Part shown: positions 11,635 to 46,990 of the stretch, piece after piece | Numbering within the stretch: the stretch's first letter is position 1 | How the letters are laid out: each line of letters starts with the position of its first letter | Virus record (IMG/VR): IMGVR_UViG_3300037067_016777 | Span: 32,001-96,000 of that record | Length of the DNA: 64,000 bases | Direction: 5' to 3' (one strand) | DNA from: a virus | Taxonomy: Duplodnaviria; Caudoviricetes | Position numbers and translations under genes: made by a program | The notes under the pieces: model-generated | The model's database searches: none | What the model was told of the DNA's origin: nothing | What the model saw: only the letters and a program-made list of their open reading frames with translations

Positions 11635-13200
11635 TCAGACGTGCAAAGCCCGATTGGGCTCATTGTTTCCCGGCAGCTTATAGACGCCTTCACGACTCGC
11701 GGACAAATAGCGTTCGTTCGCCGACTCCCGCAGCCGCTTGATTTCTTCCCGATCGGTCATACCAACGGGAGTGATGTAGGTGGCGGCTTCGGCAATCGGA
11801 ATGTTCATCCGGAACGCCTTGTCGCAGCAATGCTTGATGTCGCGAGCAGCCCATTTGTCGTCGTCCTTGAATGGCTTATCATCAAGCCCGTACTTCTTGA
11901 GGAGCACATCCCAGATTGGGCGACGTTCGACCTTCGGCGGTAGATCGAAGAAGAAAATGTCGGTGAATCGAGACTTCATTGCCCCCGATAGGCCGTCGAT
12001 GCTGTTGCTCGTGGCCAGCCACAGCGTTTCGTTGCCGCCGATAGCTTGCACGACCTTCAACGCCGACCGAATGAGGTTCTGGCTCTGGCCGACCAAAGAG
12101 CCCTGCATCGCACCAAGATCGATCCGGATAACGACGCGATCAAACTCGGCTCCGACTGCCTTGCAGATGGCCGACTTACCGCAGCCGGGAACACCTAGCA
12201 ACATGACACCGAACACATCAAAATCTTCCATCCAGGAAAGCAGCGTGCCTTCCTGGTCCTGATTGACGCCGCTCGTATCGCCACGAGCTGCCAAGCCGGT
12301 CTTCTCGATTTCGTCCAACCAGACGATAAGCTTGGGTTGTTTACGGCCGGTCATGATGCGGCTCAGGTAGGTCTTGATTTGGTCGAGGCCACCGAGATCC
12401 GTGAACTTCTCACCGCCACGATGGATCGAGAGTCCTTTCGTCTGTTCGACTTGCTTCCGCTTTGCAATCCAGCAATGCTCAAGGTCGATGCCACTCGCTG
12501 GGACCTGCCCTTCGACGGTCTGCGGACGTAAAGCCATTGCCACGACCTGTTCGGCTCCGAAGTATGGGAGGCCCTTAACGGCTTCGACGACGCGATCGAC
12601 CGCCTCGTCGCTCGCCAACGGCCGCTTCTTCTTGATGCCGGTCCCACCACAAACCTTGCAGCTTTTCAACCCATCACAGTCACAGAGGCTGACTTGTGCA
12701 TCGAGGTCCTTGACGCACTTTGCCAATTGCTCCTCGTTGGGCATCGGCTCTTCGATGATGATGACGTCGTTCTTGAGGCTCGCCGGAAGTTGGATTGTGT
12801 CGGCAAGCAATACGAGAGTGCAGCACGCCCGTTTGAAATCGTCGCGAAGGTTCCAAACGGCCTGACGGACAGTGGGGTTGTCGAGCCAGTCCGTTGCAGC
12901 TTGCATCGCGATGATGGAACCGCTCGGGATCAGGCTCAGATCTGAAATCGCCTTCAGGAAGCCAAAGGGCGACAGGGTGTTCAAATCGTCGTTCAGTGTG
13001 GCCACCGTTTTGGTGGCCATCTTGTTGTAACCATTCACGCCGCTGGCAGAGTTCCACATCATTAGCGCGGCATTCCGTGGGATTTCGCAGCAGTCCTTGA
13101 GGAGCGTCTGTATCGTGGCGGCAGGGTCAGAACATTCGATGCCGATGAGAGGCACACCAGCCTTGCGAGCAGCCAAAAATTGTTCAGTGAATGTTAACAA
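11635..13200 (-). CDS. Ycf46-like AAA+ ATPase with permuted Walker motifs
   Basis: DLGGLDQIK, IVWLDEIEK, GVPGCGKS, IDLGAMQGSLVGQSQ, ATSN, SRFTDIFFFDLP; TTG start after ACAGGAGA. Confidence 0.9.
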   Translation of the reverse strand: MLTFTEQFLAARKAGVPLIGIECSDPAATIQTLLKDCCEIPRNAALMMWNSASGVNGYNKMATKTVATLNDDLNTLSPFGFLKAISDLSLIPSGSIIAMQAATDWLDNPTVRQAVWNLRDDFKRACCTLVLLADTIQLPASLKNDVIIIEEPMPNEEQLAKCVKDLDAQVSLCDCDGLKSCKVCGGTGIKKKRPLASDEAVDRVVEAVKGLPYFGAEQVVAMALRPQTVEGQVPASGIDLEHCWIAKRKQVEQTKGLSIHRGGEKFTDLGGLDQIKTYLSRIMTGRKQPKLIVWLDEIEKTGLAARGDTSGVNQDQEGTLLSWMEDFDVFGVMLLGVPGCGKSAICKAVGAEFDRVVIRIDLGAMQGSLVGQSQNLIRSALKVVQAIGGNETLWLATSNSIDGLSGAMKSRFTDIFFFDLPPKVERRPIWDVLLKKYGLDDKPFKDDDKWAARDIKHCCDKAFRMNIPIAEAATYITPVGMTDREEIKRLRESANERYLSASREGVYKLPGNNEPNRALHV

Positions 13201-13270
13201 GGCAATTCTCCTGTGTTTCGGGGAGGACCTCCCTCCCTCTGATCTGTCATAGCACGAAATAGTTACGTGC

Positions 13271-13612
13271 TTAACTCGTAGTCGTTGACGTTGCCAGAAA
13301 ACGAGATACTTTCCATCGGTTGCTGAGAAGAGCTTTCAGATGCGTTTTGTCCAGCGTGCTGTGTGTCATCAGGGTGGGATTGACGTTATCGGGTAGATTG
13401 TCAAGCACGTTCTGGAAGACGAAGGCAACCTCAATGGCCCCTGAATGTGGCTCTTCCCAAAGACGCACTTCACAATGCTTCATCAGCATTTCGCGATTAC
13501 TGCCCTTTTCAATCTTGAACTCTGGACCAAGCTTTCGCAAAAGTCGATCTCGCCAAGTGGTAGGATCGACGCCAACATCGCCCTCTAAGGAACAAGCTCT
13601 GTAATTTGGCAT
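13271..13612 (-). CDS. hypothetical protein
   Basis: promoter, hairpin leader and ACAGGA RBS. Confidence 0.7.
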   Translation of the reverse strand: MPNYRACSLEGDVGVDPTTWRDRLLRKLGPEFKIEKGSNREMLMKHCEVRLWEEPHSGAIEVAFVFQNVLDNLPDNVNPTLMTHSTLDKTHLKALLSNRWKVSRFLATSTTTS

Positions 13613-14361
13613 CGTGAGTTTCCTGTGTTTTGAGGAGGACCTCCCTCCCTCTGATCTATCATAGCACGACGAGAGGTAATTATTAACTCGGCTTGCTGGA
13701 TGGCTTCTTCCATCAACAGGACTTCATGGTAAGCCATCCAGCCATCGGGGTGTTTGGGGCAAGGGTAGCCTGTTTTATCCCACGCCTCATAAATGGGAAT
13801 GCGGTATTCTGCCATAGGGAGAATCAGAGCATTCGAATAATCAGACATTGTGGTTGCTCTTTGCTTGCGACCAGTTGGGCGAACATTGAACTTCGTGCAG
13901 CGATGGACCGAGGTAAGTCGTCTCTGATCCAATAATGAACCAACCACGCCTGGCCCGGTTCTTTTCGTCTCTGGCCGTTGTGAATGCGACGGCCGATGGA
14001 AGTACCCCGAAATGCTTTGCGATCTTTTCTTGTTTTGTCATTTTCCTTAATCGGCTATGGCTTCCTCGACCGCTTCATCGACCATCTGTTGAAAATACCC
14101 GCTGTTCTTGATGAAGTCTTGGGCGCTCTGATAAGAACAGTTGCTAAGATAGTTCGGAGTTCCATAGGATGACTGGCGCAACCATCCGATCGTAATCTTG
14201 ACGATGCACCAGCCCCATCGGCCCTCTGCCGTCTTCATGTTCTCACGGACACACTTGGCGTAGCCTTTCATCGAGCCGGTCCGCTTCTCGGATTGTTCCG
14301 GTGTTTCTTCTTCGGCCAGCGCTTCGATGGTGATGGTGAGTTTGTTTTTGCCAGCAGCCAT
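13585..14361 (-). CDS. three small hypothetical genes (14047-14361, 13841-14041, 13585-13848)
   Basis: coupled ORFs downstream of promoter 14410-14439. Confidence 0.6.
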
Positions 14362-14447
14362 TTCGATTCTCCTGTGTGTCGGAGCGGACCTCCCGCCCCC
14401 TCCTACCTAGTTATAGCACGAGGGGCGGGAACTATTAACCGACTTCA

Positions 14448-14687
14448 TTACTTCGCTTCTGTGGTGAGTGCGTCGGTCAGGCTTGAGTAGTAACGATGAT
14501 TGACCCAACTACCGTTATCCATCTCAGCGCATGCCCAATGGATTGAGCGATTGTTGACGCATGCCCAAATCCTGATTCGAGGATGTGGGAGACGCGAACG
14601 GCTGAAGATCGGCGGATCACCGACCATGCGTTGCGGTTCGATAGTGTAGCCAAGGATCTCAGCGAGTTCAATCTCTTTTTGGTACAT
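14448..14687 (-). CDS. hypothetical protein, paralogue A
   Basis: shares GDPPIFSRSRLPHPRIRIW with 15334..15576. Confidence 0.75.
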   Translation of the reverse strand: MYQKEIELAEILGYTIEPQRMVGDPPIFSRSRLPHPRIRIWACVNNRSIHWACAEMDNGSWVNHRYYSSLTDALTTEAK

Positions 14688-14719
14688 TGTGGTTTCCCTC
14701 ATATATAGTCCCAGTCAGA

Positions 14720-15106
14720 TTAACGACGGGGCGAATCGTAGAACACGACATTGGGCATATGCCTGTTCTTACAAATCTTACGAGCTTTCTGCTCCACCTT
14801 CTCTGTCCACCTTCCACCCTGGATGTGGTGGCTACGGCATGGGCATTGAATGCAGAAATACGGTTTGCCGTTGTAGCGAAAGCTACTGACGAAGATGGGA
14901 ACAGGCAGAGAGACAGGGCGAAAGTATGCCTCGATATACCTGCTGCCGTCAATCGACGAAAACTTCGCCAGTACTTCGCCGTCCATGATGCTCTGCCGTA
15001 CTCCAGCCATGACACGGAAGACGAATAAGCCTTTGTGCCCTTGGATGGTCCAGCGAATGACATGACGACCGTTCTCGACGACGCGCTTGGAGCGTGCTAT
15101 TGCCAT
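14720..15106 (-). CDS. hypothetical protein with Cys/His motifs
   Basis: promoter and ACAGGAGA RBS. Confidence 0.65.
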   Translation of the reverse strand: MAIARSKRVVENGRHVIRWTIQGHKGLFVFRVMAGVRQSIMDGEVLAKFSSIDGSRYIEAYFRPVSLPVPIFVSSFRYNGKPYFCIQCPCRSHHIQGGRWTEKVEQKARKICKNRHMPNVVFYDSPRR

Positions 15107-15151
15107 GTGTGTTTCTCCTGTACCCCGTTATAGCACGACGACGGGGAACTA

Positions 15152-15337
15152 TTAACGGTGCTCGAATCTGACCAGACGCCTATTCAAGTCATAGACGCGC
15201 TCCAAGATGTCAAGAACATGTGAAGCCATCTTGCGGTTCCACGTCTCACCTGGAACGTTCTGCCAATGGCCGTCGCCCCACTTAAGCTGGAAATAGAGGG
15301 TCCGGCCATTCGTGCACTGTTCAACCTTGATCTTCAT
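15152..15337 (-). CDS. hypothetical protein
   Basis: ATGA coupling; GGAGG RBS. Confidence 0.6.
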   Translation of the reverse strand: MKIKVEQCTNGRTLYFQLKWGDGHWQNVPGETWNRKMASHVLDILERVYDLNRRLVRFEHR

Positions 15338-15576
15338 TTTGCCTCCATCGTGATGGCTTCCGTCAGGTCCGCATAATAGCGGTGGTTCTTCCAACCGCCA
15401 TTGTCCAACTCGGCACACGCCCAACGGATCTTGCAATCGTGGACGCATTCCCAAATCCTGATTCGAGGATGTGGTAGACGCGACCGGCTGAAGATCGGCG
15501 GATCACCGGCTTGCCGTTGCGATTCGACTGTGTAGCCAAGGCTTCGAGCGAGTTCAATCTCTTTTTGGTATCCCAT
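15334..15576 (-). CDS. hypothetical protein, paralogue B
   Basis: highly similar in DNA and protein to 14448..14687. Confidence 0.75.
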   Translation of the reverse strand: MGYQKEIELARSLGYTVESQRQAGDPPIFSRSRLPHPRIRIWECVHDCKIRWACAELDNGGWKNHRYYADLTEAITMEAK

Positions 15577-15699
15577 GTGGTTCCTTTCAACATGAGCATC
15601 GGTTGTGCTGCTCAACCCCATGTCGCCATCGGTACTGGCGTAAGGGACAGACAACCGATGTCTCTCGGTACTAAGTTATAGCACGAGTGGAGGGAACTA

Positions 15700-16226
15700 T
15701 TAACCGATGACGGTGACGCTCTTACGGAAGGCAACCCGACATTCCTGTAGGTTGTCGTTGTCGATACCACCATCAAGCTGCCAGCATTGGTATCGGATAG
15801 CCTTGGCTGCTTGTCGGATCGTCGCCATGATCGGCTTGAATCCTGGAAGGCCGAAACCCCAAAAGCTGTCGTCGTTTTCACCCGACAGATCAACCGCTCT
15901 GTCGAATGCCAGTTTGCAGGCTGTCTTGAACTCGGCTGCTATCATTCGTCGTCCTCCTCTTCCTCTTCCCATTCTTCAACGAGATAGCCGAAACTGGTCG
16001 CCATTTCGTTGATGAGTTGGGTCTTGGTCATATGATCGTAGCCAACGCAGCCATCACGCAGCATATCGCCGTACATGTCTGCTCTGTCCGTGGAGCTACT
16101 GTCGATGAAAGCACTAACCAAATTGTCGACAAGACGCTCGATGACGTCTTCCATCCCGTGCCGCTCGATAATCTCGGCAGCGGCTTTCTTCAACCGTCGT
16201 AGTTCTTTTTGTTCGGCTGGTGTCAT
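15700..16226 (-). CDS. two small hypothetical genes (15942-16226, 15700-15945)
   Basis: downstream of promoter 16244-16273; ATGA coupling; the first has an acidic tail. Confidence 0.65.
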
Positions 16227-16342
16227 GGTTTCCCTCCTACCTAGTTATAGCACGACAACAGGGGATTATTAACCTCGGGTTTGGATACGACAGCACCCCC
16301 CCCATGGCGACTACGGGCCACCTCTTGACTTGTTAGGGCCTT

Positions 16343-17433
16343 TCAGCCAGCGCCTGATAAAGCGCTGCGTGGGACGCCCAATGGCAAAATGTCAGTTTCT
16401 TCGGTCGTCACCTTTCCGCCATTTCGGATTGCCCAATCGGCTCGACTGGCAAATTCCCTTTGGGCATCTCGATCATCCCAGTCGATGACTCGCTTGTTGC
16501 ATTCACCAGTATCAGAATAAAAGACGGTGCAAAGAACCTTCAACATGGTTGTCCTTTCCAAGTAGGAAATCTACTAATCCCATTCGCCGATGACGGCTCG
16601 CAAATCCTTTTCGAAGGCATCACCGCACCATGAGTTCAGACCGAACTCGATTACACCAGCCCCAAGCTTCTGGCGGTCAAATACGGCCACCTTGCCGGGT
16701 TCCTTGAAGACGACGGCAACCATCGGGTATCGCGAACCTCTGACGACACAATCAAAAGTGACGACACAGAAGCCCGCGTTTTGTCCGTTCCGGTGGTAGG
16801 TTTTTTCAGTCGAGCCAGGAACGATAGGGGTGAATTCGTCGTGCTGGCTTTTCATGCTCTCCCTTTCCAAGTTGGAAACCCGATGGCAGAGGGTGTCGTC
16901 ATTAACGGCAGCCTCTGCCATCCTCCCTATTCAGGAGAATGGCGAAAATAATTCCCTGCTAGGTGGTCCTGTCACTCAACCCCATTCCGCCTTCCAAACG
17001 CCGTACAACGGCAGGGCTGGATGGCCTATGGAACCGTGGCTATCAACCACGGTGATGCAGGGTTCGAGTAGCAGGCACCGCAACAGCAAAATCGCGATGC
17101 CGAGCATGTTTTCTCCTCCTCTACCCAATCGTAGCACAAATGCAGGTGATTGTTAACTTGTGTCCTTTCCACTCTGGAAATCTAACCGCCATATCCGACG
17201 ATCAGACCAGCGACAACTCGGCCGATGGTAGAACACCAAATCCCGTTGACCTTCACAATCCAACCAACGCCGTCGATCGGGCGTAGCTCTGACAGAACGA
17301 TTGGACCGCTAAAGCCGAACATTTCGTGGCCGACAATCTCCACTCGACCAACAAGTCCAGTAAAGGTGGCCTTCACGCCGTGGTCTTTTTTGAGCCACCA
17401 GCATACGCTTTCGCCAAGTTCGTGATATTCCAT
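16343..17433 (-). CDS. four small hypothetical genes (17182-17433, 16976-17107, 16574-16855, 16343-16546)
   Basis: each has a purine-rich RBS; three RBSs overlap the TTTCC-N5-GGAAA palindrome. Confidence 0.6.
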
Positions 17434-17454
17434 GTTTTTCTTCCACGAAGGAAA

Positions 17455-17984
17455 CTACATTTCCTCGAATTGGACGCTCTTCACGAAGACACGGACACCA
17501 AGCCGCACAGTCTTCCGCGTGTCGGTTTCTTCGTCTTCTCGCACGTGAGTGACACAGCCGTCTCTCCACTGGAACTCCGTTTCTTTTCCGTCGGAGTCCA
17601 CGACAACACGACTCCCCATATCGTCCAGCGACGACCGCAGTTCTGCTGCGACTGCTTTGCAAAACTCCTCGGCATACTTTTCCGGTGCTTGCATCGATCA
17701 ATCTCCTGTGTGTTGGGGAGGGCTTCTTTCCACGAAGGAAAGTACGATCACAAATCCTCTTCCGTCACGGAGACGACGACGACTCGCACATCGAGCTGCA
17801 CAACCGTCCGTTTGCCAGTTTCTTCGTTCTCTTTCGTCACGCGACCACTTCTCCAGTCAAGATCGTATTCGCTGCCATCGGGCAAGAGCAGCATCCAGGA
17901 GCCGTTGCACAACGCCTCTCCCACGTTGTCCTCTGCTGCTTTTCGGACTTCTTCTGCAAACTGCGTTTGTTCTGGTGTAGACAC
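17455..17984 (-). CDS. tandem paralogue pair (17748-17984, 17455-17694)
   Basis: shared PE..AEE..KA...GS......DG.E....WR.G.VT...EET..R..V.L.VRV.V.SV..E; ACAGGAGA RBS on both. Confidence 0.7.
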
Positions 17985-18075
17985 GTTCGTTCTCCTGTTG
18001 TTTTGGGAGGACCTCCCTCCCTCTGGTACGTCGTAGCACGACGAGGGCACTTTCTTTCCACGAAGGAAAGCACGA

Positions 18076-18627
18076 TCAGCTTTTTGCGGCTGTGATCAAC
18101 AACTCTCTGTTGTGGGCGATTGCCAGCCCGATGCCGAGTCGCGCTTCCTCTACGGAAAGTAGAGGGTATCGTTTGCGCATCTCGTACACAAGACCGTCGC
18201 AGATCCGCTGCAGCCTCTTTTTTGGCGGCAGCTTGATCGGTGAGTGGTAAACGATGGTTTCAGACATGCTTGCCTCGTGAAAAAGGAGGGTGTCGGTCGT
18301 AGGCAACAATCCCTATCTTGCGATATTGGACCACAGTGTCGGCTTTTCGCCGTCTTTGGCTAGGATGACTTGTGCCTACGACCGACACCCTCCCCAGCCA
18401 GACGGACCAGGGGAGGGTGTCACCACGACGGATCAGATCGGGCCGATCACGGGTGCTGCGGCAACGAGCTTCTCTCGATGCGCGTTGAGCGTCATTCCGG
18501 CGAGCATCCGGGCTTGATCGTAGTCAGCGGGCGTCGGGACATACTCGTCGCCCTTGTCAGCCGTGTCGCGAAGGACGATCCCGTTGACAATGCTCTCGGT
18601 GATAGCGTGGAATTGCTTCTGGGTCAT
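18076..18627 (-). CDS. two weakly similar small genes (18433-18627, 18076-18267)
   Basis: shared AR...G.......RE.L..AA C-terminal pattern. Confidence 0.55.
18285..18421 (-). promoter_or_regulatory. alternative-hairpin element (21-bp stem plus U-run versus a competing 12-bp stem)
   Basis: 18285-18305 pairs with 18373-18393; 18384-18395 pairs with 18410-18421. Confidence 0.6.
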
Positions 18628-19071
18628 GACGAATCCTGTGTGTACTGGAGGAGGGCCGGACCGACTGGCCTCGCGTCACCCTCCCCCTCTGGTACGTCGT
18701 AGCACCGCGAAGGCAGCCGCTTTCAGTTAACGAGGAGGGCTCGTCGGGCTAGTGGGAGTGCTCTCCCTCCCCGTACCCCTATCCCCCTCTACTGGGAGAG
18801 TATAGTAACTATGCCCCAGGAGAATGGGGGTTGTGCAAGGGGTGGCCGGGTTTCTCTCTGTATCGAGTATATTTTCCGCGTGCGTGAGGGCCATATACCC
18901 CTTCTGGGTGGGATGCTAGCTTACACTTTTCTGCTAGCCAGTTGCCGACGTAGAGTTTCCGCTTTGTTTCCGATGTATCTCGTCAGAATAACAAGATTCT
19001 TTCAGCTCGATAAGCAATCTAGATAGTTTCACTTTAGCCCTGGCCTGTATTTCTGGTACGAGACTTGCGTA

Positions 19072-19102
19072 GGAAGATTGGAAGATTGGAAGATTGGAAG
19101 AT
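19072..19102 (+). repeat. tandem 8-bp repeat GGAAGATT, ~4 copies
   Basis: directly visible in the non-coding divergence zone. Confidence 0.85.
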
Positions 19103-19279
19103 GGGGAAGTGGGGCACTTATTTCACGCCCCGGACAAATACTCAATATCCAGGAGGACCCAATATCGAATTTCCGCGAGAATAAATTTCTAAATATGCGA
19201 AGGCTACCTGTCTCACCATATATACATATCAGGAGATTTAGAATGTGCCAGAATCACAAATATACTTCTGAGGTGTCCG

Positions 19280-20167
19280 ATGAAACTAGCATTACTGTGT
19301 GAAGATTTCGATAGCCAGTTCAGAAACCAGCAGTTATCATGGGGAGAAAGAAATCGTGAATTTATCAAGATAAGAACAGAGGAGACGAAAAAAGAATTAT
19401 TGCGATTGGCAGTAAATGGTGCCAGACGACCAAAACCAACATCGTCAGATGCAAAAGAGCGACGGTTAGCAAATTCACTGGGCAGTTATACCGGCAAGTC
19501 GCGTTCCTATGATAGAGAATTCGATGATAAAATTCGTGCTTTAGCACCGCAATGGTTCCTCCATGTAAATGAACATAAAGAGGAATTGTTGACGTTGGCT
19601 AAAAGTGGTGCCGCTAGGCCGAGCTTTGCTAAAAATAGATCGCGGAAAGAACGAATACTGGCAGGAAGATTGAATAATTATATACAACCAACTAATAAAT
19701 CATATGACGCCGAATTCGTCGAGAAGTTGAGAAAGATAGCTCCAGGATGGCTAGTCGATAAGGTAGCGGAAAACAGAAAGAGGATATTGGAAATCGCTAA
19801 AAGTGGAGGAAAACGTCCCTGGATAACATCTACTGACCTGGAAGAGAAACGGATAGCATTAGCACTCAATAACTATCTCAAAAAGAGCCATCCCTCTTAC
19901 GATAGCAGATTTGTTGAAGAACTACAAAAAATTAGACCAGATTGGTTTCCACAATCAGTTGTGGCCGAGAATAAAAGAAGACTGCTAGCAATAGCTAAAA
20001 GCAGCGGAGCGCGTCCAAAGTTCACAGACGACAAGCAACTAGCACGAGCTATTATGACTTATACTGATAGAAATGGGCCATCCTATGATGAGGCGTTCGA
20101 TGCAGAAATTCGCAGATTAAGGCCAGATTGGTTCGGACGTGGATATCATCCTAGACGAGGTGTCTGA
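19280..20167 (+). CDS. tandem ~69-aa repeat protein 1 (4 repeats)
   Basis: KxxLLxxAxSGxxRP...ExRLA..L..Y...SYDxEF...IR...PxWF units. Confidence 0.85.
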   Translation: MKLALLCEDFDSQFRNQQLSWGERNREFIKIRTEETKKELLRLAVNGARRPKPTSSDAKERRLANSLGSYTGKSRSYDREFDDKIRALAPQWFLHVNEHKEELLTLAKSGAARPSFAKNRSRKERILAGRLNNYIQPTNKSYDAEFVEKLRKIAPGWLVDKVAENRKRILEIAKSGGKRPWITSTDLEEKRIALALNNYLKKSHPSYDSRFVEELQKIRPDWFPQSVVAENKRRLLAIAKSSGARPKFTDDKQLARAIMTYTDRNGPSYDEAFDAEIRRLRPDWFGRGYHPRRGV

Positions 20168-21084
20168 TGAAACTCAGTTTGCTAATAGAAGATTTCGATA
20201 GCGAATTTCGCGATGATTATACACCATACGCTGATAGAAATAAAGAACATGATAGATTAAGGATAGCAGAGACGAAACGAGAAATAATAAAATTAGCGGC
20301 AAGCGGTGCAAAACGACCAAACCCAAAATCAAAAGACCCAAAAGAAAGACGACTAGCGAATTTTATAAACTCCCATGCAAGCCCCGCATCTCACGTTTAT
20401 GACATGAAATTTCGTGGCGCTTTGCGTGAAATAGCCCCGCATTGGTTTAGCTGGGCAGTAGAGTTAAAAGATGAATTGCTAAATCTTGCTAAAAGCGGCG
20501 CAAAACGACCGAACATCAGATCCAAGGATCCGAAGGAAAGAAAGCTCGGGCAGGCGTTTGATAGCTATTATCGCCGAACGTCCAAAGCATACGATCCAGA
20601 ATTCATTAAGAAAATCAAAGCGATAGCTCCAGAATGGCTAATATATAAGACGCCAAGAGTAGAAGAGAACATACGGAAGCTGTTAGAGATAGCCAAGAGC
20701 GGAGGGCAGCGGCCTAGTTGGATGTCGAGCGATCCTGAAGTTAGGCGATTAGCAAACGCATTAACCAGCTATATGAGAGTGGATTCTACAACCTATAGAA
20801 AAGACTTTGCCAATCAATTGCGTAAATTGCGGCCAGAATGGTTTATAGATATACTGGTAGCGAAGCATAAAAAACGGATACTAGAAATAGCTAAGGGCGG
20901 AGAGAAGCGACCACGATATAATGCTGGTCCTGAGGAGAGGCGATTAGCAGTAGCACTTGCTCTCTATATTGATAAATCTGGTAACTCGTATGATAAGGAA
21001 TTTGATGAGATGCTTCGCAAAATGAGGCCAGATTGGTTTATTAGGAGACATAGAGGATACGGCGACAAGAAACAACCGCTCTAA
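20167..21084 (+). CDS. tandem ~69-aa repeat protein 2 (4 repeats)
   Basis: same repeat; GAGGTG RBS; MKLSLLIEDFDSEFR N-terminus. Confidence 0.85.
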   Translation: MKLSLLIEDFDSEFRDDYTPYADRNKEHDRLRIAETKREIIKLAASGAKRPNPKSKDPKERRLANFINSHASPASHVYDMKFRGALREIAPHWFSWAVELKDELLNLAKSGAKRPNIRSKDPKERKLGQAFDSYYRRTSKAYDPEFIKKIKAIAPEWLIYKTPRVEENIRKLLEIAKSGGQRPSWMSSDPEVRRLANALTSYMRVDSTTYRKDFANQLRKLRPEWFIDILVAKHKKRILEIAKGGEKRPRYNAGPEERRLAVALALYIDKSGNSYDKEFDEMLRKMRPDWFIRRHRGYGDKKQPL

Positions 21085-21094
21085 GAGGTGTCTG

Positions 21095-22234
21095 ATGAAA
21101 CTCAGTTTGCTAATAGAAGATTTCGATAGCGAATTTCGCAGGGAATATGTGCCATTCGGGCAGCGGAACCTTAAATATATTAGGTTAAGAATGGAGGAAA
21201 CTAAGGAGAAATTATTAGAGCTAGCAAGAAGCGGAGTGAAACGCCCAAAATATAAATCGCTTGATCCAGAAGAAAGGCGACTAGCTCGTGCATTAAATGA
21301 TTTTACAAGCCTAGACGTTGCACGGCGTGACCCAGAATTCTGTGCTAAGATATATGCCCTCGCTCCAGGATGGTTTGATCCAGACAGGAAAGCTAGGGTA
21401 ATAGCTACAAAAAAGAAGCTATTAGAGATAGCGAGAAGCGGGGGAGAGCGACCAAGATACAACTCTACCGATCCAGAAGAAAGACGACTAGCGATCTCAT
21501 TAACCCGTTATGCCGTTCATCCGGATACAAAAGATGACGAATTTGCAAAAGAGATATTCGTAGCAAGGCCAGAATGGGCACCGGGGTATCGCACAATCCT
21601 AATGGCAAGAACAAAAGAGAAATTGCTGAAGATGGCTGCGAGTGGAGCCGCACGCCCGGACCGATATTCAACAAACCGGGAAGAGGCTAAATTAGGAATA
21701 GCCCTAAATAATTATACTACTAAGAGCCAGCGACAATATGATGCAGATTTCTACAATAAACTCGTTAAAATCAACCCTGATTGGGTTGATAGATTGGATC
21801 AGATATATAAAAGAGTGGCAGAGACGAAGAAGAAACTGCTGGAAATGGCAAGGAATAACGAAAGACGACCAAACATCAGATCTAATAATCCAGAAGAAAG
21901 ACGACTAGGAATAGCTCTCAGCGTCTATGTCAACAAATTAACAAGATCTTATGATGCAATATTTACAAGAGAAATCCGTGCACTTAGACCAGATTGGTTT
22001 GATTCAGACAGAAAAGCAATAGTGGCAGAGACGAAGAAGAAACTGCTGGAAATGGCAAGGAATAACGAAAGACGACCTCAATACAAGTCAAGCGATCTAG
22101 AAGAGAAGCGATTGTCTAGCGCATTAATGACTTACACTTCAACCGGTAGTGGTTCTTACGACGAAGCATTTACAAGAGAAATCCGTGCACTTAGACCAGA
22201 TTGGTTTGATTCAGACAGAAGAGGAGCAATATGA
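21095..22234 (+). CDS. tandem ~69-aa repeat protein 3 (5 repeats)
   Basis: same repeat; the last two units are a 207-bp duplication (starting 21814 and 22021). Confidence 0.85.
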   Translation: MKLSLLIEDFDSEFRREYVPFGQRNLKYIRLRMEETKEKLLELARSGVKRPKYKSLDPEERRLARALNDFTSLDVARRDPEFCAKIYALAPGWFDPDRKARVIATKKKLLEIARSGGERPRYNSTDPEERRLAISLTRYAVHPDTKDDEFAKEIFVARPEWAPGYRTILMARTKEKLLKMAASGAARPDRYSTNREEAKLGIALNNYTTKSQRQYDADFYNKLVKINPDWVDRLDQIYKRVAETKKKLLEMARNNERRPNIRSNNPEERRLGIALSVYVNKLTRSYDAIFTREIRALRPDWFDSDRKAIVAETKKKLLEMARNNERRPQYKSSDLEEKRLSSALMTYTSTGSGSYDEAFTREIRALRPDWFDSDRRGAI

Positions 22235-22249: not shown

Positions 22250-24499
22250 TCACGATACTCCTAGGGCTATATCTGGTGGGAGCATCTGTATCCGATGAAG
22301 TACAGTTTCTACATCAAGATTCAACTTATGCCCCCATTCCGCTGCCGTGAGCTTCTCATTATTATAAATGAATTTCGTGACTTGATGGCCTACCATTATA
22401 GCCTTGTGGAATTTAGCATAATTTGCCCCTAATTTTCTTGCCCACTCAGCCATTAATAATGTCTGACCATTATATTCATATCTTGTCCTGCCCACGCCTC
22501 TACATCTCAATTTCACCACAGCCGTGAATCTGCTTGCCCACTCCCTTAGCGTCAACGACTCACCATTATATGTGAATAACTTTGTGTCATATGCTTTTAA
22601 TTTCCTCTGTTTATAGCATTCGACAGCTAATGCCTTTTCTACTGGCTGTCGAATCAAACGACGCTGCATTGCTTTTACTGAGCACTGTCTTCTTTTTGCC
22701 CATTCCTCTATTGTAAGAGATTCGCCATTATAGGTGAATAGATGCGTTGGAGTCAGATTATGCAGTCGCTCCAACAGAACCTCTATTGGTATTTTGCTAG
22801 AATAAACAGCAAGCGTGTCTGGCGATATATCAAATGTTTTTGCCCATTTATGCAATGACATCGTTCGGCCGAGATATGTATATTTCTTCACATTTGATGA
22901 TTGATTCGTCTTTTGTTCTGCGTCGGGACTTACCTGATTTGCCTGGATCTGATCTGTTTTGATATGCTCCGCTTGTGCTTTCTCGACCTCAGCGAAACAT
23001 GTGAGGCGTTTAACCGCCTTTGATTCTATCTGACGTATCCGTTCTCTCGTAACCTTGTATTTTACAGCTATTTCTTGAAGACTTAATCCTTGTGCACGTA
23101 ATTGCAGTACCTTGATGGCTCTCGCTGACAATTTGTCGTTCTGAGATTTATGTGATTTGTTATACCATTCCACGACTTCATCTAGTGATATGCCGAATAT
23201 GTTTTCAGGCTTCGAGACGTTTCGACAACAAGCATATTCCTTCTCCGCTTCTCGTCTCTCATATAGCATAATGAGATGCGACATCTTATGTCTTCCAACT
23301 ATCGACAAATAATTTAATATGTGCTGGTTCGACTCGAATTTATCAATATTGTTCTTCATTAAGATTGTGCAAGCCGCTGTCCAAGCAAGATCTTCAATAT
23401 CTTCGTCAGTACAAGGTTTTCGACGCACTTGATTGCAGTAAAACGTCAATACAGACACAATCATATCGGCAATCGGTTTGCCATCACCCGTTAAGAAATA
23501 ATTCTTAAAAGCTGACAACATATCAAATCTAGCGTACTTCGCTGGCAATTTTACGAAGTGCTGCGATTTTCGCATCGGATTTATGATAATATATGGATAA
23601 TCCGGGGCGTGGCTTGCTTTACGAGTTTTATGCCTAGTCCTGACATTTCTTCTTTTGTGTTTTCTCTCTGCTTTTCCGAGCCTATAACGCTCTACTGCTT
23701 CTGCTAATGAATGGGAAGCAACGTAGCCTTGAAACGTCATCTTACTCACATTTAACTCTGTCGCCCATTCTCTACATGTCAACGATTTACCGTCGTATTC
23801 GTATCTCGGTACAACATATTTCACATTTATTGCCTCTTCAATCGGCAATCGCCGTAACCGCCTCGACATCTGTGTCATAGATAGGCCCAGCTTCTGAGCC
23901 CATTCAGCGGTTGTTAATGATTCGTCGCCAAATGTATACCTCCTAGTCCTGTTCTCTTGTACAGCCTTCTGAAATTTTTCGTTATCAAGTGCTATTTCAT
24001 GCGAATAGCTATTCAATCTGTTTCGCAATTGCGAAACAGAGATTCCTAACTCGGTCGCCCACTCTTTGGTTGTTTGTGATTTTCCATTGCACTTATACCG
24101 CCTCGCCCTATTTGCCTCAATAACCGCTTTGAATCTTTCATTATCCAACGCCACATCGACTGCATAACGCCTCAACCTGTGTCTTAGTTGGTCATATGAA
24201 ATGCCCAATTCAATTGCCCACTCATCCAACGTTTTCCCACCATGCGTGAACTCTTTTGATATTACACCAGCGACTTTCCTGTACTCCGTGTTATCTAATG
24301 CCACCTCCGGGATATAGTCCCTTAACCTGCGCAATAGCCGTCGTGGTGTAATCCCTAACCTAGATGCCCACTGATGCAATGCCAGCGTTTCGCCGTCGAG
24401 CGTCAGTATCTTCTCATATTCCGGTTTTGGATAGATATCGACGTTATATTCATCACTATCAAGGGCAATAGTAAAACTCACACAGTTAGCGTTGTCCAT
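22250..24499 (-). CDS. sigma70-like protein (region 4, probable region 2) flanked by ten HTH-like repeats
   Basis: LSARAIKVLQLR...SLQEIAVKYKVTRERIRQIESKAVKRL; DIEDL...IDKFE...YL; ten YxGxxxTxxEWA repeats. Confidence 0.8.
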   Translation of the reverse strand: MDNANCVSFTIALDSDEYNVDIYPKPEYEKILTLDGETLALHQWASRLGITPRRLLRRLRDYIPEVALDNTEYRKVAGVISKEFTHGGKTLDEWAIELGISYDQLRHRLRRYAVDVALDNERFKAVIEANRARRYKCNGKSQTTKEWATELGISVSQLRNRLNSYSHEIALDNEKFQKAVQENRTRRYTFGDESLTTAEWAQKLGLSMTQMSRRLRRLPIEEAINVKYVVPRYEYDGKSLTCREWATELNVSKMTFQGYVASHSLAEAVERYRLGKAERKHKRRNVRTRHKTRKASHAPDYPYIIINPMRKSQHFVKLPAKYARFDMLSAFKNYFLTGDGKPIADMIVSVLTFYCNQVRRKPCTDEDIEDLAWTAACTILMKNNIDKFESNQHILNYLSIVGRHKMSHLIMLYERREAEKEYACCRNVSKPENIFGISLDEVVEWYNKSHKSQNDKLSARAIKVLQLRAQGLSLQEIAVKYKVTRERIRQIESKAVKRLTCFAEVEKAQAEHIKTDQIQANQVSPDAEQKTNQSSNVKKYTYLGRTMSLHKWAKTFDISPDTLAVYSSKIPIEVLLERLHNLTPTHLFTYNGESLTIEEWAKRRQCSVKAMQRRLIRQPVEKALAVECYKQRKLKAYDTKLFTYNGESLTLREWASRFTAVVKLRCRGVGRTRYEYNGQTLLMAEWARKLGANYAKFHKAIMVGHQVTKFIYNNEKLTAAEWGHKLNLDVETVLHRIQMLPPDIALGVS

Positions 24500-33444: not shown

Positions 33445-33840
33445 ATGGTTGAGTCGACTACCTACCGAGAATTATGTGTCGCGATGATAGCTGAATTGCG
33501 AAAAACTGCCAATCTAATTGGTGGTCCGCGAACAGATCTCGCTGTTGAATCAGCGATGCGGCTACAACTGCAACTAAAGAAGATTGATAGATCTCAGTTA
33601 TCTGATTTGAGGGAAAAATCAGATAACCCTGAAGGGCTTTATCGGAAATATAACATCACAAAAGCCGATGGCAGTCCATGCAACCCAAAGGCAAAATATT
33701 TCGTTCTTCGTTTGGACTGGAATGGAAGCGATAAAGATCACGTAGAGGTATGCCGCATGGCGGCACGCACCTACATAAGAAATGCTCCAAAGCGCTTGCA
33801 AAAGGTGGCCTCCGAATTAGCGGAATGGATAGGTCTATAA
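33445..33840 (+). CDS. hypothetical protein
   Basis: GGAGA RBS; GLYRKY...YFVLRLD phage-type motif. Confidence 0.7.
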   Translation: MVESTTYRELCVAMIAELRKTANLIGGPRTDLAVESAMRLQLQLKKIDRSQLSDLREKSDNPEGLYRKYNITKADGSPCNPKAKYFVLRLDWNGSDKDHVEVCRMAARTYIRNAPKRLQKVASELAEWIGL

Positions 33841-34355
33841 TGAATATTGTTCAAAAAGCTGAACGACTCGCACGTGATGCACACGAAGGTCAATATCGGA
33901 AATATACCGACGATCCTTATATAGTGCATCCAGAAGCCGTCGCCAACATAGTGGCATCGGTCACTGACGATCCCGTTATGTTGGCGGCAGCTTGGTTGCA
34001 TGATGTCGTAGAAGACACTAATGTGACCATCGATATGATTGAGGTTGGCTTCGGACCAGAAATTGCCTCAGTCGTATCCGACGTCACAAATGTCACAAGG
34101 AAGTCTGACGGCAACCGTCAATATCGCAAGGGAGTCGAGAGGCAGCATTTAGCTGGGGCGTCTCCGAAAGCTAAAACTGTTAAGCTTGCTGACATATTGC
34201 ATAACGTTCCAGATATTATCAAGAACGATCCTGGATTCGCACGTACTTATGTTGCTGAAAAGCAGGCCGTCTTAGAGGTTCTGGTTGGTGGCGACGAAAC
34301 GCTATACGCCGCAGCAAAGCAAATCATAGACGGTTTTATGCAATTTGTGCTATAA
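33840..34355 (+). CDS. SpoT/MESH1-like HD-domain hydrolase
   Basis: AHEGQYRK...PYIVHP...AAWLHDVVEDT...VKLAD..HN. Confidence 0.9.
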   Translation: MNIVQKAERLARDAHEGQYRKYTDDPYIVHPEAVANIVASVTDDPVMLAAAWLHDVVEDTNVTIDMIEVGFGPEIASVVSDVTNVTRKSDGNRQYRKGVERQHLAGASPKAKTVKLADILHNVPDIIKNDPGFARTYVAEKQAVLEVLVGGDETLYAAAKQIIDGFMQFVL

Positions 34356-34559
34356 TTAATTGAGCATATCTATGAATTGGCGAGAACACTGGAAACAAGC
34401 GAATCCTTTTGATCAGTTTATGTGTATTTTGATGTCTGTTGACGGCAACGTCCAGAATATCAAAGATTGTATCGGCGGCGATTTACCTGTTGGTCGACTG
34501 GAGCGACATGTTGAAGAGCTACGTGCTTTAGAGCCTTACTTGCGTCGAGGGTCGTGGGA

Positions 34560-35012
34560 ATGACGAAGTTGTATATTCTGCGTGATGATATTACTGTATA
34601 TTGCGGTGATAAAGAGTGCTTGTATCCCAATTGGGCTGGTACACCGTGTAGAAGCTTAGCGACTGTATGGAGTAATGCCAGTGAGGTTGCACAGGCTTTG
34701 GTGAAGTTGTCTGTCAACAACAAAGTCTGTGTTGTTGAATTCAGCGATGAGAAGACATGTTTGTTCCAGACATGTGAGAGCGAAGTAATTCATGTTAGCG
34801 GCGATCAAGTTGTGGTTGTAATAGCCATCGACGACGATTTAGTTGAACAAAAGTATGGCACGTCACAATTTATAGATGGTCGTATACCACAGAAGGGCGA
34901 TATGCTCGAAATGCGTGTCCAATTCATCAAGCTCGACTCACAGGAACACGCACAACCAGGGCAAATATCTAAACCACGAAAGAATGTTGTGCCACTTCCA
35001 CGCACATTTTGA
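34560..35012 (+). CDS. hypothetical protein
   Basis: coupled to small ORF 34360..34563. Confidence 0.6.
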   Translation: MTKLYILRDDITVYCGDKECLYPNWAGTPCRSLATVWSNASEVAQALVKLSVNNKVCVVEFSDEKTCLFQTCESEVIHVSGDQVVVVIAIDDDLVEQKYGTSQFIDGRIPQKGDMLEMRVQFIKLDSQEHAQPGQISKPRKNVVPLPRTF

Positions 35013-35019
35013 ATACGCA

Positions 35020-35051
35020 ACCGCCCCATAAGCCTAAGCAAATGGGGCGGT
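35020..35051. terminator. hairpin between convergent genes
   Basis: ACCGCCCCAT / ATGGGGCGGT stem. Confidence 0.65.
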
Positions 35052-35060
35052 GTACTATCG

Positions 35061-35630
35061 CTATGCTACTGGTGTTTCAGCAGCGGTAGCAGCTTCAGCA
35101 GCGGTAGCAGCTTCAGCAGCGGTAGCAGTTTCGGCGGTAGCAGTTTCGGCGGGTGTTTCCACTGTTACTATGATATCCTCCGGAGTTCCGGCAACAATGT
35201 TTAATCCGGCCGCTACGCCACCAACCACTTCTATGTCAACCATACCAGAGATGGTCTTAACGCCCTCGCCCAAATCAGCGTCGGCTGTGATTGTGATTTG
35301 GGTCGTGCCGATTGCACCAGTCGTCGTAGCTACGCAAGTCAAGCCATCAGTTGATGGTGTAAGAGTGAGGATTGCTGGATCGGCAACAACCCAAGTGGGT
35401 ACTCCATCAACCCGTGCAGCATTACCCTTTGCGTCAACCGGGGATACTGTGATGGTAACTTTCTGAGCGTCTTTCAAAACTAACATCGCAACTTCTCCTG
35501 ATCTCGGTGATGATTCAACAGGGCCAATACGCCACCGGAAACATACGGCCTTGCGTTTACAAAACATTCCCCGGATGTCTTGAGCCAGCGACACTATTGC
35601 AGTTTTCAGCTGTATGAGCCATCTTAGCAT
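35061..35630 (-). CDS. Ig-like beta-domain protein with TAAEAA repeat tail
   Basis: beta-strand pattern VTITVSPVDAKGN...PTW...; 18-bp tandem repeats at about 35077-35150; CAGGAGG RBS. Confidence 0.65.
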   Translation of the reverse strand: MLRWLIQLKTAIVSLAQDIRGMFCKRKAVCFRWRIGPVESSPRSGEVAMLVLKDAQKVTITVSPVDAKGNAARVDGVPTWVVADPAILTLTPSTDGLTCVATTTGAIGTTQITITADADLGEGVKTISGMVDIEVVGGVAAGLNIVAGTPEDIIVTVETPAETATAETATAAEAATAAEAATAAETPVA

Positions 35631-35698
35631 AGTGCCCTCCTGTTATATTTACATTGTGTATTTGAACTCAAAAGCTCTACAGAACTAGATGACAAAAG

Positions 35699-36326
35699 GT
35701 GATTATGATTGACGAAGAACTCGAAGAGGATGAAGAAGTTGAACAAGCTGAGATTGAGGAGGACGGCAGCCGGATAGTAGAGATTGTGAAGCCAAAGGCC
35801 ATAATATTATATGGGCATATTAATATTGCTAGGAAAGGCATTGCATACCTCACATTAAAAAATTCAATCGGACAGGAGTCGTTTGCAGAATGCAATAAAA
35901 ATATTCTGCGAATACTCGGCATTGGTATCAAAGATGCATTTGAGATTATTATTTCTAAACCAGATGGCGTCATAACAGTTTTCATCCAATCGCCGAAGAA
36001 GAGCCAGCAGTTGTTTGATTGGCGGTTTATGCGCGAGACTGTCGAGCAGGCGTTATCAGATAATAAAATGGCCGATATTGAGGAGAAACGACATGGTAAC
36101 TGAAATCGAGGAACTGCGTCTCAAAGTCGCCAACCTGCAAAGGCTACTAAAATCAGTTCACAGTGTTGCTGGAGAAGCATTTGATGCTTGGGATTCTGAT
36201 AATGATATGAGAGTTGGTAAAATTCTTAATGCATTATCTGGTGGTATTCCTGGATATAGATCAGATATAGATGAAATTGTGGAAGCTGTACTTCAGATAG
36301 ACCGGTTGACTATAACCCAGCCTTAA
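35699..36326 (+). CDS. two hypothetical genes (35699-36103, 36093-36326)
   Basis: RBS-supported coupled ORFs. Confidence 0.55.
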
Positions 36327-36676
36327 AATGAAACGTTTGTCGCATTTATATCGTGCGATTTGACTTTTTCAAGTGCGTTTTGTGCTGCTGTGATGTGTCT
36401 TAAATCGAAAAATGCTGTTGCACCTGGATCTGCTTCGATACAACGAAGAAGTAAAGAAAGGGCTTTGAAAAGGTCGTCGTGGCAATTGCAAGCACAAACG
36501 ATAAACTGTGCATCTTCTTCGCTGATTTGAACGCCAGATATAGTTCCATCTTTCGATGAGTCATAGGCTGCAGAACAAATAACCGGCTTATTCTTGGCAT
36601 AAATTTCACGCCAATTCTTCGTAAAGCCGCTTTTAGTTTGTGTGTTCCTGACTTCCCAGGGTGTTGCAGTGTGCAT
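36323..36676 (-). CDS. phage hypothetical protein
   Basis: HTATPW...EDAQFIVCACN.HDDL phage motif. Confidence 0.6.
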   Translation of the reverse strand: MHTATPWEVRNTQTKSGFTKNWREIYAKNKPVICSAAYDSSKDGTISGVQISEEDAQFIVCACNCHDDLFKALSLLLRCIEADPGATAFFDLRHITAAQNALEKVKSHDINATNVSF

Positions 36677-36778
36677 AATCAATCCCTGAAGAGATCGGAG
36701 GGGCCGGGCTAAAATTAGCCTCACGTCACACCTCGTCTCTTTCCCCATTCCTAAAATACATATTGCTAGTATTTAAAT

Positions 36779-37939
36779 GTGATGAGCATAAAGGACACAG
36801 AACATCTTGGACAGGTTTTTACGCCCCAGTCTATAGTAACTCATATGCTGACGTTGCGGCAGCGTCTTGGTACTGTTCTAGAACCAAGCGTAGGCGATGG
36901 TGCTTTCTGGCAGCATTTATGCGGTGAAGATGCAGTAGGGATTGAAGTTGACCCTAAGTATTGCCCGTCAGATTGTCTTAATATAGATTTCTTCGACTAC
37001 GATATCAGCCATCGATTTAACACAATCATAGCAAACCCTCCCTATGTCGCAGGTAAGAACATCTGCGCGTCGACTAGATCGAAGCTATCTAAGTTATTCC
37101 CATTCAAAACGAACCTTTATATCCACTTCATAGCTAAATGTCTTGCACATCTCAATAGGTATGGTGAGTTAATAGTTATCACTCCACGCGATTTCATTAA
37201 ACTCACGCTCGCGGCCCCTATTAATAACTTGATGTCTTCAACCGGTTACATAACACATTGGCTCGAATTCGGTGAAGACAATCCTTTCACAGGCCCGACT
37301 GCACACAATCTTGTAATATGGAGATTTGAAAAAGATTACACTGGACATCAACTGACATTCGTGAATGATTCTATCAGAAGGATGGTTAACTCGAACGGTC
37401 AGCTGATGTTTGTGTCGGCCGATTATTCTGTTCCGTTTTCAGAATTATTTTATGTGAAGGTTGGTGCTGTTAGCGGTGCCGACAAGGTATTTGTTGATGA
37501 AAAGGGTAATCTTGATATAGTTTATTCTGGTACAGCTAGAACTGGCAAGACAAGAAAGGTCTATTATGACCATTTTGATGATCATTTGCTTGAATCAAAA
37601 GAGCGGCTAAAGACTAGACGGATCAGAAAATTCAATGACGAGAATTGGTTTAAGTGGGGACGCTCGCTTTGCGCTGATAATTCTGACAGGATCTACGTCA
37701 ATTGCAAGACACGTAGTAGTAGACCATTCTTCTTGCATCAGTGTAAGAACTTCGATGGTGCAGTATTGGCTGTGTTCCCGAAGAAAAAGATGAATTTACA
37801 AAAAGCCTGTGGCATGCTGAATGATGTTGATTGGCACGATCTCGGCTTTAGTTATGGTGGTAGATTCATTTTCAACCAGAGGGCATTAGAGAATTCATTA
37901 CTACCAGCCGACTTGGCTGCTGGGGTCTTAAATGGGTAG
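36779..37939 (+). CDS. amino (N6-adenine) DNA methyltransferase, gamma class
   Basis: GQVFTP, LEPSVGDG, IANPPY. Confidence 0.9.
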   Translation: MMSIKDTEHLGQVFTPQSIVTHMLTLRQRLGTVLEPSVGDGAFWQHLCGEDAVGIEVDPKYCPSDCLNIDFFDYDISHRFNTIIANPPYVAGKNICASTRSKLSKLFPFKTNLYIHFIAKCLAHLNRYGELIVITPRDFIKLTLAAPINNLMSSTGYITHWLEFGEDNPFTGPTAHNLVIWRFEKDYTGHQLTFVNDSIRRMVNSNGQLMFVSADYSVPFSELFYVKVGAVSGADKVFVDEKGNLDIVYSGTARTGKTRKVYYDHFDDHLLESKERLKTRRIRKFNDENWFKWGRSLCADNSDRIYVNCKTRSSRPFFLHQCKNFDGAVLAVFPKKKMNLQKACGMLNDVDWHDLGFSYGGRFIFNQRALENSLLPADLAAGVLNG

Positions 37940-39520: not shown

Positions 39521-39532
39521 TACTTCTCCAAA

Positions 39533-41179: not shown

Positions 41180-41601
41180 GTGAATAACGTCCCTTCCATC
41201 TTACGCCGTCGTGCTTCTCCGAGACTAATGCTGAGTTCGGCAGCGATTTGCTTCATGCTCATTCCAGCAAACCTATGATCGCCCGGAGCGTTTTTTGGAG
41301 TACCATTCAGACGAATCTCTTCGTCGTGTGCTTTCTTCCATGAGATATAGGCTGAATGGTAATTTTGGAATGCTACGCACTTGGGACCTTTTCGTTCCCA
41401 TACTGGACAACCTGCACATGGATTACGCCCAGTTAATCCCATTAATGCGTAGAACATTTGTCTGAGTGAATCTGCCTCGGCTTGAATGCAGCCGTCAGAT
41501 TTCAACTGATCGAAGTCGGCACTTAGTGTTCCGACAGGCGGTAAGTACCTACTGTCTCTGAATCGTTCCTTACTTTGTGGAAAAGCTTGTTCTAATAGCA
41601 T
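41176..41601 (-). CDS. hypothetical protein with C-terminal HTH
   Basis: CAGC...C motif; GMSMKQIAAELSISLGEARRR. Confidence 0.65.
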   Translation of the reverse strand: MLLEQAFPQSKERFRDSRYLPPVGTLSADFDQLKSDGCIQAEADSLRQMFYALMGLTGRNPCAGCPVWERKGPKCVAFQNYHSAYISWKKAHDEEIRLNGTPKNAPGDHRFAGMSMKQIAAELSISLGEARRRKMEGTLFT

Positions 41602-46978: not shown

Positions 46979-46990
46979 TTGTGACTACCC

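Follow-up and report, generated by a model that had tools for sequence, protein, structure and literature searches.

According to our analysis, the genes g1, g2, and g3, which lie in tandem in a 64,000-nucleotide window (positions 32001-96000 of the 269,105-bp virus record IMGVR_UViG_3300037067_016777, from an uncultured jumbo phage), encode stand-alone arrays of a three-helix unit. We class this unit with the helicase-associated (HA) kind, as a divergent branch of it, and not as a member of PF03457 as that Pfam model is defined. We think that the arrays probably act as DNA-binding proteins. The record is ~74% complete by CheckV estimate, and end repeats were not found.

When the three proteins are split at P-x-W, 4+4+5 = 13 units are obtained, in agreement with an earlier reading made from the sequence only, which had described three basic tandem paralogues with 13 repeats; their isoelectric points (pI) lie around 10 (9.8 to 10.1), with net charges of +21 to +24. 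The same reading had the units end in PxWF, which is accurate for P-x-W, present in all of them, but not for the last residue, which is F in only 9 of the 13 units and otherwise L (two units), A (one), or V (one). Internal units measure 62 to 71 amino acids (aa) and first units 93 to 94 aa, the latter being longer because a shared leader of ~30 aa precedes them. This leader, with the consensus M-K-L-S/A-L-L-I/C-E-D-F-D-S-E/Q-F-R... across g1 to g3, was also located by alignment at 20167-20256 in g2 and 21095-21184 in g3, and a leader-like sequence starts the relative P0061. Six columns (A, R-P, F, P, and W) are invariant over the 13 units, amino acid identity among units is 31 to 64% (measured against the last unit), and Tandem Repeats Finder reports none of the arrays, since the units are too diverged. 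Helix 1 has the consensus K-x-x-LL-E-x-A-x-x-G-x-x-R-P and is followed by the loop S-x-D-P-E-E; helix 2 (R-L-A-x-A-L-x-x-Y) leads into a second loop and then into helix 3 (Y-D-x-x-F-x-x-x-I-R-x-x-x-P-x-W-F). AlphaFold2 predicts three helices per unit both in the g3 model (predicted local distance difference test [pLDDT] 90.9, predicted template modeling score [pTM] 0.67) and in a single unit (pLDDT 94.0), and models residues 1 to 20 of g3, within the leader, only weakly (pLDDT 46 to 52).

The stop codon TGA of g1 and the ATG of g2 share one base, g1 and g2 are translationally coupled, and the three paralogues are probably co-transcribed. The ribosome-binding block GAGGTGTCCG upstream of g1 is replaced before g2 and g3 by a variant in which T stands for the second-last C, and a promoter and terminator scan gave signals at chance level. 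We regard g1 to g3 as real genes because strain differences are mostly synonymous and at third positions: among the best 40 of 119 differences in a variant strain from the public sequencing run X1, 30 fall at third codon positions, and the 34 changed codons comprise 27 synonymous and 7 non-synonymous changes. Contigs of the same run, which matches best among the public runs, show 0 differences over the g1-g3 region and break at the repeated blocks; no RNA data set was listed among those containing the sequence.

The likeness of the repeats to HA repeats, which had been proposed loosely, is supported by helicase fusions, by arrays that mix both kinds of unit, and by matches between predicted structures. 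A homology search returned 47 homologous proteins, of which one (P0002) is 86% identical and three are paralogues encoded by the same 234-kb contig. In a profile search with the 13 units, as suggested by the earlier reading, 1341 representative clusters among 1.84 billion representatives matched at an E value of <=1e-3, 380 of them at <=1e-30. An SF2 (superfamily 2) helicase core (ResIII/DEAD/Helicase_C) lies N-terminal to the array in 21 of the 31 longest relatives scanned, where the units occupy the C-terminal part of the protein, typically to its last residue; six of nine long open reading frames (ORFs) in related viral loci likewise have ResIII/DEAD/Helicase_C before the array. Both kinds of unit meet in locus L007, which encodes a 925-aa protein: its SF2 helicase core is followed by three units of the g1-g3 type and these in turn by canonical HA units, with one of the latter matching PF03457 above the Pfam cut-off (E value 1.6e-17, 64 bits). 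PF03457 matches were also detected in 10 of 113 shorter relatives; in the eight of them that could be localized, a canonical HA half-unit occupies the N-terminus and units of the g1-g3 type follow directly. Many stand-alone relatives begin with a partial unit, and most relatives have N-termini unlike the g1-g3 leader.

The branch is concentrated in large phages, often in clusters of stand-alone array genes. A degenerate DNA pattern of the unit end picked out 35 stretches on 22 viral contigs, 18 of which have units verified by hidden Markov model (HMM), with six of the 18 exceeding 200 kb. Array genes form tandem clusters on 7 of the 18 HMM-positive contigs, with nine genes, two of them helicases, on the 234-kb contig; on another contig, array proteins of 1314, 496, and 228 aa illustrate how stand-alone arrays adjoin a helicase-array fusion. 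A pattern scan of genome contigs gave 62 matches, which is about the chance level by our estimate; eight of these loci were HMM positive and two had arrays. The sole clear case in a cellular bin is L062, an 18,753-bp contig of a Paludibacteraceae metagenome-assembled genome (MAG) with three tandem array genes of 3, 6, and 3 units, which may be a phage binned with the MAG. Two small phage proteins of three to four canonical HA units (L022:4563-5312 and L023:4410-5312) have a unit loop, P-S-x-x-S-K-x-x-E-E-K-x-L-G, closely like that of g1 to g3, and may be intermediates between both unit types. Four SF2 helicases of related jumbo phages, 1142 to 1355 aa long (L009:4990-8934, L012:2710-6666, L017:734-4162, and L018:9128-13195), carry their units in mid-protein; an additional conserved domain, which has a Cys-Cys motif and no family match, forms their C-terminal end.

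In part, comparisons of predicted structures point in the same direction. Foldseek against BFVD, a set of predicted viral structures, gave five matches at an E value of <=1e-3, the top ones being giant-virus SF2 helicases and HA proteins (6.1e-7 to 1e-3, probability 1.0). When the full model was compared by VIA-align with 48,161 entries, 2kta, the nuclear magnetic resonance (NMR) structure of an HA domain, came second (Z 4.8, root mean square deviation 4.6, 72 aligned residues). In the ESM Atlas, the clusters nearest by features carry PF03457 in 69 to 98% of their members, and a structure match with a template modeling (TM) score of 0.47 aligned to the HA part of a helicase. At the level of profiles, hhalign of the 13 units against nine canonical units gave a P value of 0.0012 and a probability of 19.6% over 30 columns, which run from helix 1 across the loop into the beginning of helix 2. 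Among the structural neighbors of g3 in the ESM Atlas there are also Bacteroidota clusters in which Sigma70_r4 and the RNA polymerase alpha C-terminal domain occur together with HA; the gene beside g3 encodes a sigma factor, and a transcription link of the arrays is possible. A tblastn search with the neighboring sigma protein found no copy beside the arrays of the related loci.

Sequence comparisons of g1 to g3 returned no significant family from Pfam, PHROGs, NCBIfam, or PADLOC, no BLAST match among phage and plasmid records, and no PDB match (best E value, 0.088). Several results weigh against the HA assignment and its extension to helicases. PF03457 has no match on g1 to g3 in a Pfam scan at an E value of <=1 and none anywhere in the 269-kb record at <=10, and when the family-wide profile of 911 units is aligned to canonical HA by hhalign, the P value is 0.05 to 0.18, which is not significant. 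The viral helicases matched in BFVD have low TM scores of 0.25 to 0.35, Foldseek against PDB yields nothing at <=1e-3, and for the single-unit model 2kta falls to rank 11 (Z 3.8, 65 aligned residues), tied with generic three-helix and helix-turn-helix (HTH) bundles. Finally, no helicase carrying units of the g1-g3 type is encoded in the 269-kb record, and the link to helicases is therefore one of the family and not of the g1-g3 locus.

The basic charge, together with the Lys and Arg residues at conserved positions, leads us to infer DNA binding: each unit would contact DNA, and an array would cover an extended DNA stretch. The backbone would be held by basic residues that are nearly invariant, namely a Lys in helix 1 and Arg/Lys both in front of the Pro and in helix 3; the choice of ligand would be tuned by the more variable middle (loop, helix 2, and loop), in which S, N, R, and K abound. 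The module that serves relatives as the C-terminal array of SF2 helicases would, in g1 to g3, act alone or as a detachable motor tail. Because the record has neither a unit-bearing helicase nor a partial unit, g1 to g3 would act alone or dock onto a partner encoded in the missing quarter of the genome. Two papers that cite a 2013 NMR study (one of them 10.1101/2024.11.13.623437) state that HA domains bind DNA and also describe them as tandem copies in TtrA, a Streptomyces telomere protein, and in telomeric TniQ.

The second of these options can be phrased as a hypothesis of its own, in which the arrays are tails or adaptors for an SF2 helicase that dock via the leader or a partial unit and provide a substrate-binding arm. 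It is compatible with DNA binding, and it is suggested by the stand-alone arrays placed beside helicase-array fusions in related jumbo phages, as on the 234-kb contig, and by the partial unit at the start of many stand-alone relatives. We nonetheless hold it to be unlikely, given that none of the other ORFs of the ~74% complete record bears a unit-carrying helicase or, even at relaxed thresholds, a truncated unit, and that the large helicases of related phages end in an extra C-terminal domain and not inside a unit.

The earlier reading had further described the repeats as having constant flanks and a variable middle, which holds in part. Across 177 proteins with 912 units in total, the columns of helix 1 plus R-P have a mean entropy of 2.02 bits, those of the middle 2.82 bits, and those of the segment formed by Y-D, helix 3, and P-x-W-F 1.76 bits. 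Highly variable columns (entropy of >=2.5 bits) number 9 of 18 in the helix 1 segment, 16 of 21 in the middle, and 6 of 17 in the helix 3 segment (31 of 56 in total), and the variable columns of the middle are rich in S, N, R, and K. The middle is thus more variable, yet variability extends beyond it: 15 of the 35 flank columns are highly variable as well, and constant flanks are confined to units 4 and 5 of g3 (r4 and r5) and do not extend to all 13 units.

In these two units, which repeat with a period of 207 nucleotides (starting at 21814 and 22021), the claimed identical ends around a differing middle were confirmed, with 57 and 53 identical nucleotides enclosing 90 nucleotides of which 51 are mismatched. 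The block of ~55 bp claimed to be common to the starts of g2 and g3 proved to be an exact 55-nucleotide tract spanning the ribosome-binding site, the ATG, and 15 codons. These tracts are far above chance, since among the remaining 76 of the 78 unit pairs exact in-register runs reach 21 nucleotides at the longest, and nucleotide identities are 41 to 63%. An assembly artifact was ruled out for the r4-r5 tandem, because P0002 keeps both middles in the same order and the contigs of run X1 show 0 differences. In the landfill metagenome runs X2 and X4, contigs join r4 and r5 in another order over 21814-22220, going back 207 nucleotides; these joints may represent unit-number variants or mis-joins across the 53- to 57-nucleotide repeats, and they were not counted because the contigs have ~4x depth across those repeats. 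The exact tracts would be recent short gene conversions between neighboring units or paralogues, restricted to the conserved flanks, with the middles staying distinct.

The pattern recurs beyond this locus. Within-locus comparison of 1624 unit pairs (187 unique units in 17 locus groups) revealed 19 pairs, in 7 of the 17 groups, that combine flanks of at least 90% nucleotide identity with middles of at most 65%; six phage contig groups besides the present one are involved. The converse, a middle of at least 90% identity with divergent flanks, occurs in 0 of the 1624 pairs, with no middle cassette reused; just three pairs reach >=90% in every segment, and these are artifacts of overlapping loci. 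The claim that the repeat recombines is supported, for the flanks, by the exact tracts and by this one-sided distribution. In P0002, the middles of r4 and r5 are conserved at 24 of 30 residues each and in the same order, while their flanks differ from one another and a sixth unit is present. Of the strain changes in run X1 (best 40 of 119 differences), synonymous and non-synonymous codon changes number 11:6 in the middles and 16:1 in the flanks (Fisher P = 0.085). Middles evolve faster, under mostly purifying selection, and are never exchanged. Homogenization of the flanks by short conversion tracts fits these data, and the distinctness of the middles fits both a stalling of conversion in diverged sequence and a selection that keeps the middles different.

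Diversification by a diversity-generating retroelement (DGR) was ruled out, since the mismatches between the middles of r4 and r5 involve all bases. A reverse transcriptase gene (RVT_1, E value 4.1e-24; G000:C1:125057-125692, outside the window) lies ~70 kb from the arrays, and close to it there is an imperfect pair of 147-nucleotide repeats (126578-126724 and 127051-127197, 71% identical). The mismatches of this pair have no adenine bias, for which reason its surroundings are no obvious DGR, and the pair has no match to the g1-g3 locus.

The same data bear on the suggestion that the repeat is a programmable modular reader, in which the middle helix would read a few bases and recombining flanks would shuffle specificity cassettes, as in TALE, PUF, or PPR proteins. 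This would agree with a middle that is the most variable segment (2.82 versus 2.02 and 1.76 bits) and whose variable columns favor S, N, R, and K, with identical flanks around divergent middles in 7 of the 17 locus groups and never the converse, and with non-synonymous strain changes that are denser in the middles (6 of 17 against 1 of 17 changed codons). The suggestion nevertheless fares poorly, and we deem it distinctly unlikely: the units are just 31 to 64% identical and 15 of 35 flank columns are highly variable, no pair joins a middle of >=90% identity to a divergent flank, the middles of r4 and r5 are conserved in P0002, the 11 synonymous versus 6 non-synonymous changes counted over all middles give no sign of positive selection, and an 8-bp repeat upstream of g1 (see below) is without counterpart at the array genes in 19 related loci. 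A TALE-like code is unsupported because the middles are kept between strains, selection is mostly purifying, and no cassette is reused. The recurrence of homogenized flanks around middles that are kept apart hints that the units are not interchangeable. They could be individually specified readers, each middle having its own short DNA element, with recombination holding the flanks uniform and selection holding all middles different, so that an array would spell a composite target and the three paralogues three extended sites, one of them possibly (GGAAGATT)x4. We offer this as a long shot; if it is true, HA arrays would constitute a new class of natural modular DNA readers.

A role without nucleic acid, as a protein-binding scaffold or decoy whose helical array binds host or phage proteins, also has to be weighed. 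The weak whole-model matches in PDB are armadillo and designed helical repeat peptide binders (E values 0.02 to 0.1, TM scores 0.1 to 0.16), which are not significant; together with the net charge of the three proteins, the presence of the unit family on DNA motors, and the statements of the two papers mentioned above that HA domains bind DNA, this leaves such a role very improbable. There is an equally slim, or slightly slimmer, chance that the arrays are packaged internal head proteins coating the incoming, probably modified DNA, with the leader as a capsid-targeting peptide cut by the prohead protease, since the leader is present in all three very basic paralogues and in P0061 and contains L-x-E (in T4, gp21 cuts after L/I-x-E and the internal proteins bear a leader of this type) and the window encodes a Peptidase_S77 prohead protease (E value 2.6e-21), but the tripeptide L-x-E is short and common, most relatives have different N-termini, and g1 to g3 lie among DNA-metabolism genes and not head genes.

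The neighbors of g1 to g3 are DNA-metabolism and DNA-modification genes, encoding an NAD ligase, a clamp loader, methyltransferases, a PurZ-like synthetase, Mom, and a T4-type prohead protease, and a sigma factor flanked by HTH arrays (22250-24499) lies downstream of g3 in convergent orientation. A DNA-modification gene cluster is likely at 33750-48707 and 60412-63932; besides the genes listed in Table 1, it includes a kinase, a glycosyltransferase, and a radical S-adenosylmethionine gene, and the phage DNA may be hypermodified, possibly with 2-aminoadenine.

Table 1. Positions, within the window, of g1 to g3, their sequence features, and genes of the likely DNA-modification cluster
Feature	Position	Strand	Remarks
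Ribosome-binding block GAGGTGTCCG	19270..19279	+	Upstream of g1; read directly
g1	19280..20167	+	295-aa basic protein; N-terminal leader and 4 HA-like three-helix units; pI 10.08
Shared N-terminal leader, ~30 aa	19280..19369	+	MKL-x-LL-x-EDFDS-x-FR...; outside the repeat core
55-nucleotide tract, g2 start region	20157..20211	+	Same as 21085-21139; putative gene-conversion tract; run X1 contigs break here
g2	20167..21084	+	305-aa basic protein; leader and 4 units; P0011 in the homologue list
55-nucleotide tract, g3 start region	21085..21139	+	Partner of 20157-20211
g3	21095..22234	+	379-aa basic protein; leader and 5 units
57-nucleotide tract, helix 1 of g3 unit 4	21814..21870	+	Identical to 22021-22077 (unit 5)
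Divergent middle of g3 unit 4 (loop, helix 2, loop)	21871..21960	+	51 of 90 nucleotides mismatched versus 22078-22167 of unit 5
53-nucleotide tract, helix 3 and P-D-W-F of g3 unit 4	21961..22013	+	Identical to 22168-22220 (unit 5)
HD phosphohydrolase	33750-34355
Two methyltransferase-like genes	36779-38729
Thg1-like gene	38726-39520
PurZ-like adenylosuccinate synthetase	42289-43482		phrog_1211, E value 4.5e-59
Mom	63204-63932

The DNA upstream of the arrays has features of its own. A perfect 8-bp tandem repeat, (GGAAGATT) x3.9, is located at 19072-19102 (degenerate to 19114), ~180 nucleotides upstream of g1. An operator role for (GGAAGATT)x4 was considered and rejected: this array is the sole copy in the 269-kb record, and no comparable repeat was seen at the array genes of the 19 related loci, in which positions were not mapped gene by gene. 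In four metagenome runs, the word depth over a stretch of ~54 nucleotides at 19150-19203 is 5 to 14 times that of the sequence around it; this stretch is single-copy in the genome, the contigs carrying it diverge on both sides, and it may be a common phage promoter or regulatory element. An Rfam search of 13000-19400 returned no match. The 6 kb at 13271-19078 have a GC content of 52 to 54%, compared with 41 to 45% downstream, with the shift in composition at the start of the array operon, and contain only small minus-strand ORFs without family match.

HA domains are found widely on the DNA motors of bacteria, phages, and giant viruses, and to our knowledge there is almost no functional characterization of them. 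The kind of domain itself is known but uncharacterized; what is new here is a sequence branch missed by the Pfam HA model, a stand-alone expansion of tandem paralogues in large phages, and the pattern of conversion limited to the flanks. Our literature search yielded no publication that deals with jumbo-phage HA arrays of the stand-alone type. If the branch were included in the HA family, many phage proteins now called "hypothetical" would receive an annotation, in view of the 1341 representative clusters, and we think that such small arrays, predicted to fold well (pLDDT of >90), are convenient material for learning the ligands of HA arrays.

With the HA domain of Pfam (PF03457; PDB 2KTA, a domain of Bacteroides vulgatus A6KY75), the g1-g3 type shares a three-helix unit of ~65 aa with a conserved terminal aromatic residue, a putative common segment made of helix 1, Pro, and S-x-D-x-E-E-x-x-L, and, in relatives, the tandem arrangement at the C-terminal end of SF2 helicases, with both unit types within one array in L007. 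The two types differ in that canonical units (those of L007, L022, and L023) read G-x-W-x-x-x-Q-R...L-E-S-x-P-G-W where the g1-g3 type reads Y-D-x-x-F-x-x-x-I-R-x-L-x-P-D-W-F, in that the Pfam model misses the g1-g3 type, and in that the arrays of g1 to g3 are unfused and belong to three paralogues that have a leader of their own. The sigma factor of the same phage likewise carries arrays of small three-helix modules of a DNA-binding type (ten HTH modules), and HTH proteins are among the weak fold matches of the single unit; its modules, however, belong to another repeat family (HNH-associated HTH, phrog_3377), and no sequence similarity to g1 to g3 was found. Unlike what is expected of programmable repeat binders (TALE, PUF, and PPR proteins), the units of g1 to g3 show neither near-identity with few hypervariable positions nor cassette reuse, and no positive selection is seen in them; both are basic proteins of tandem helical units in which the variable positions are concentrated in one part of the unit. 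The last comparison is with the tandem HA arrays of Streptomyces TtrA and of telomeric Tn7-like TniQ (10.1101/2024.11.13.623437). There the domains are canonical and reside in actinomycete cellular or plasmid proteins, whereas g1 to g3 are phage-borne and unfused; in both cases, domains of the same kind are arranged in tandem, are proposed to recognize a DNA target, and are tied to DNA motors or transposition proteins.

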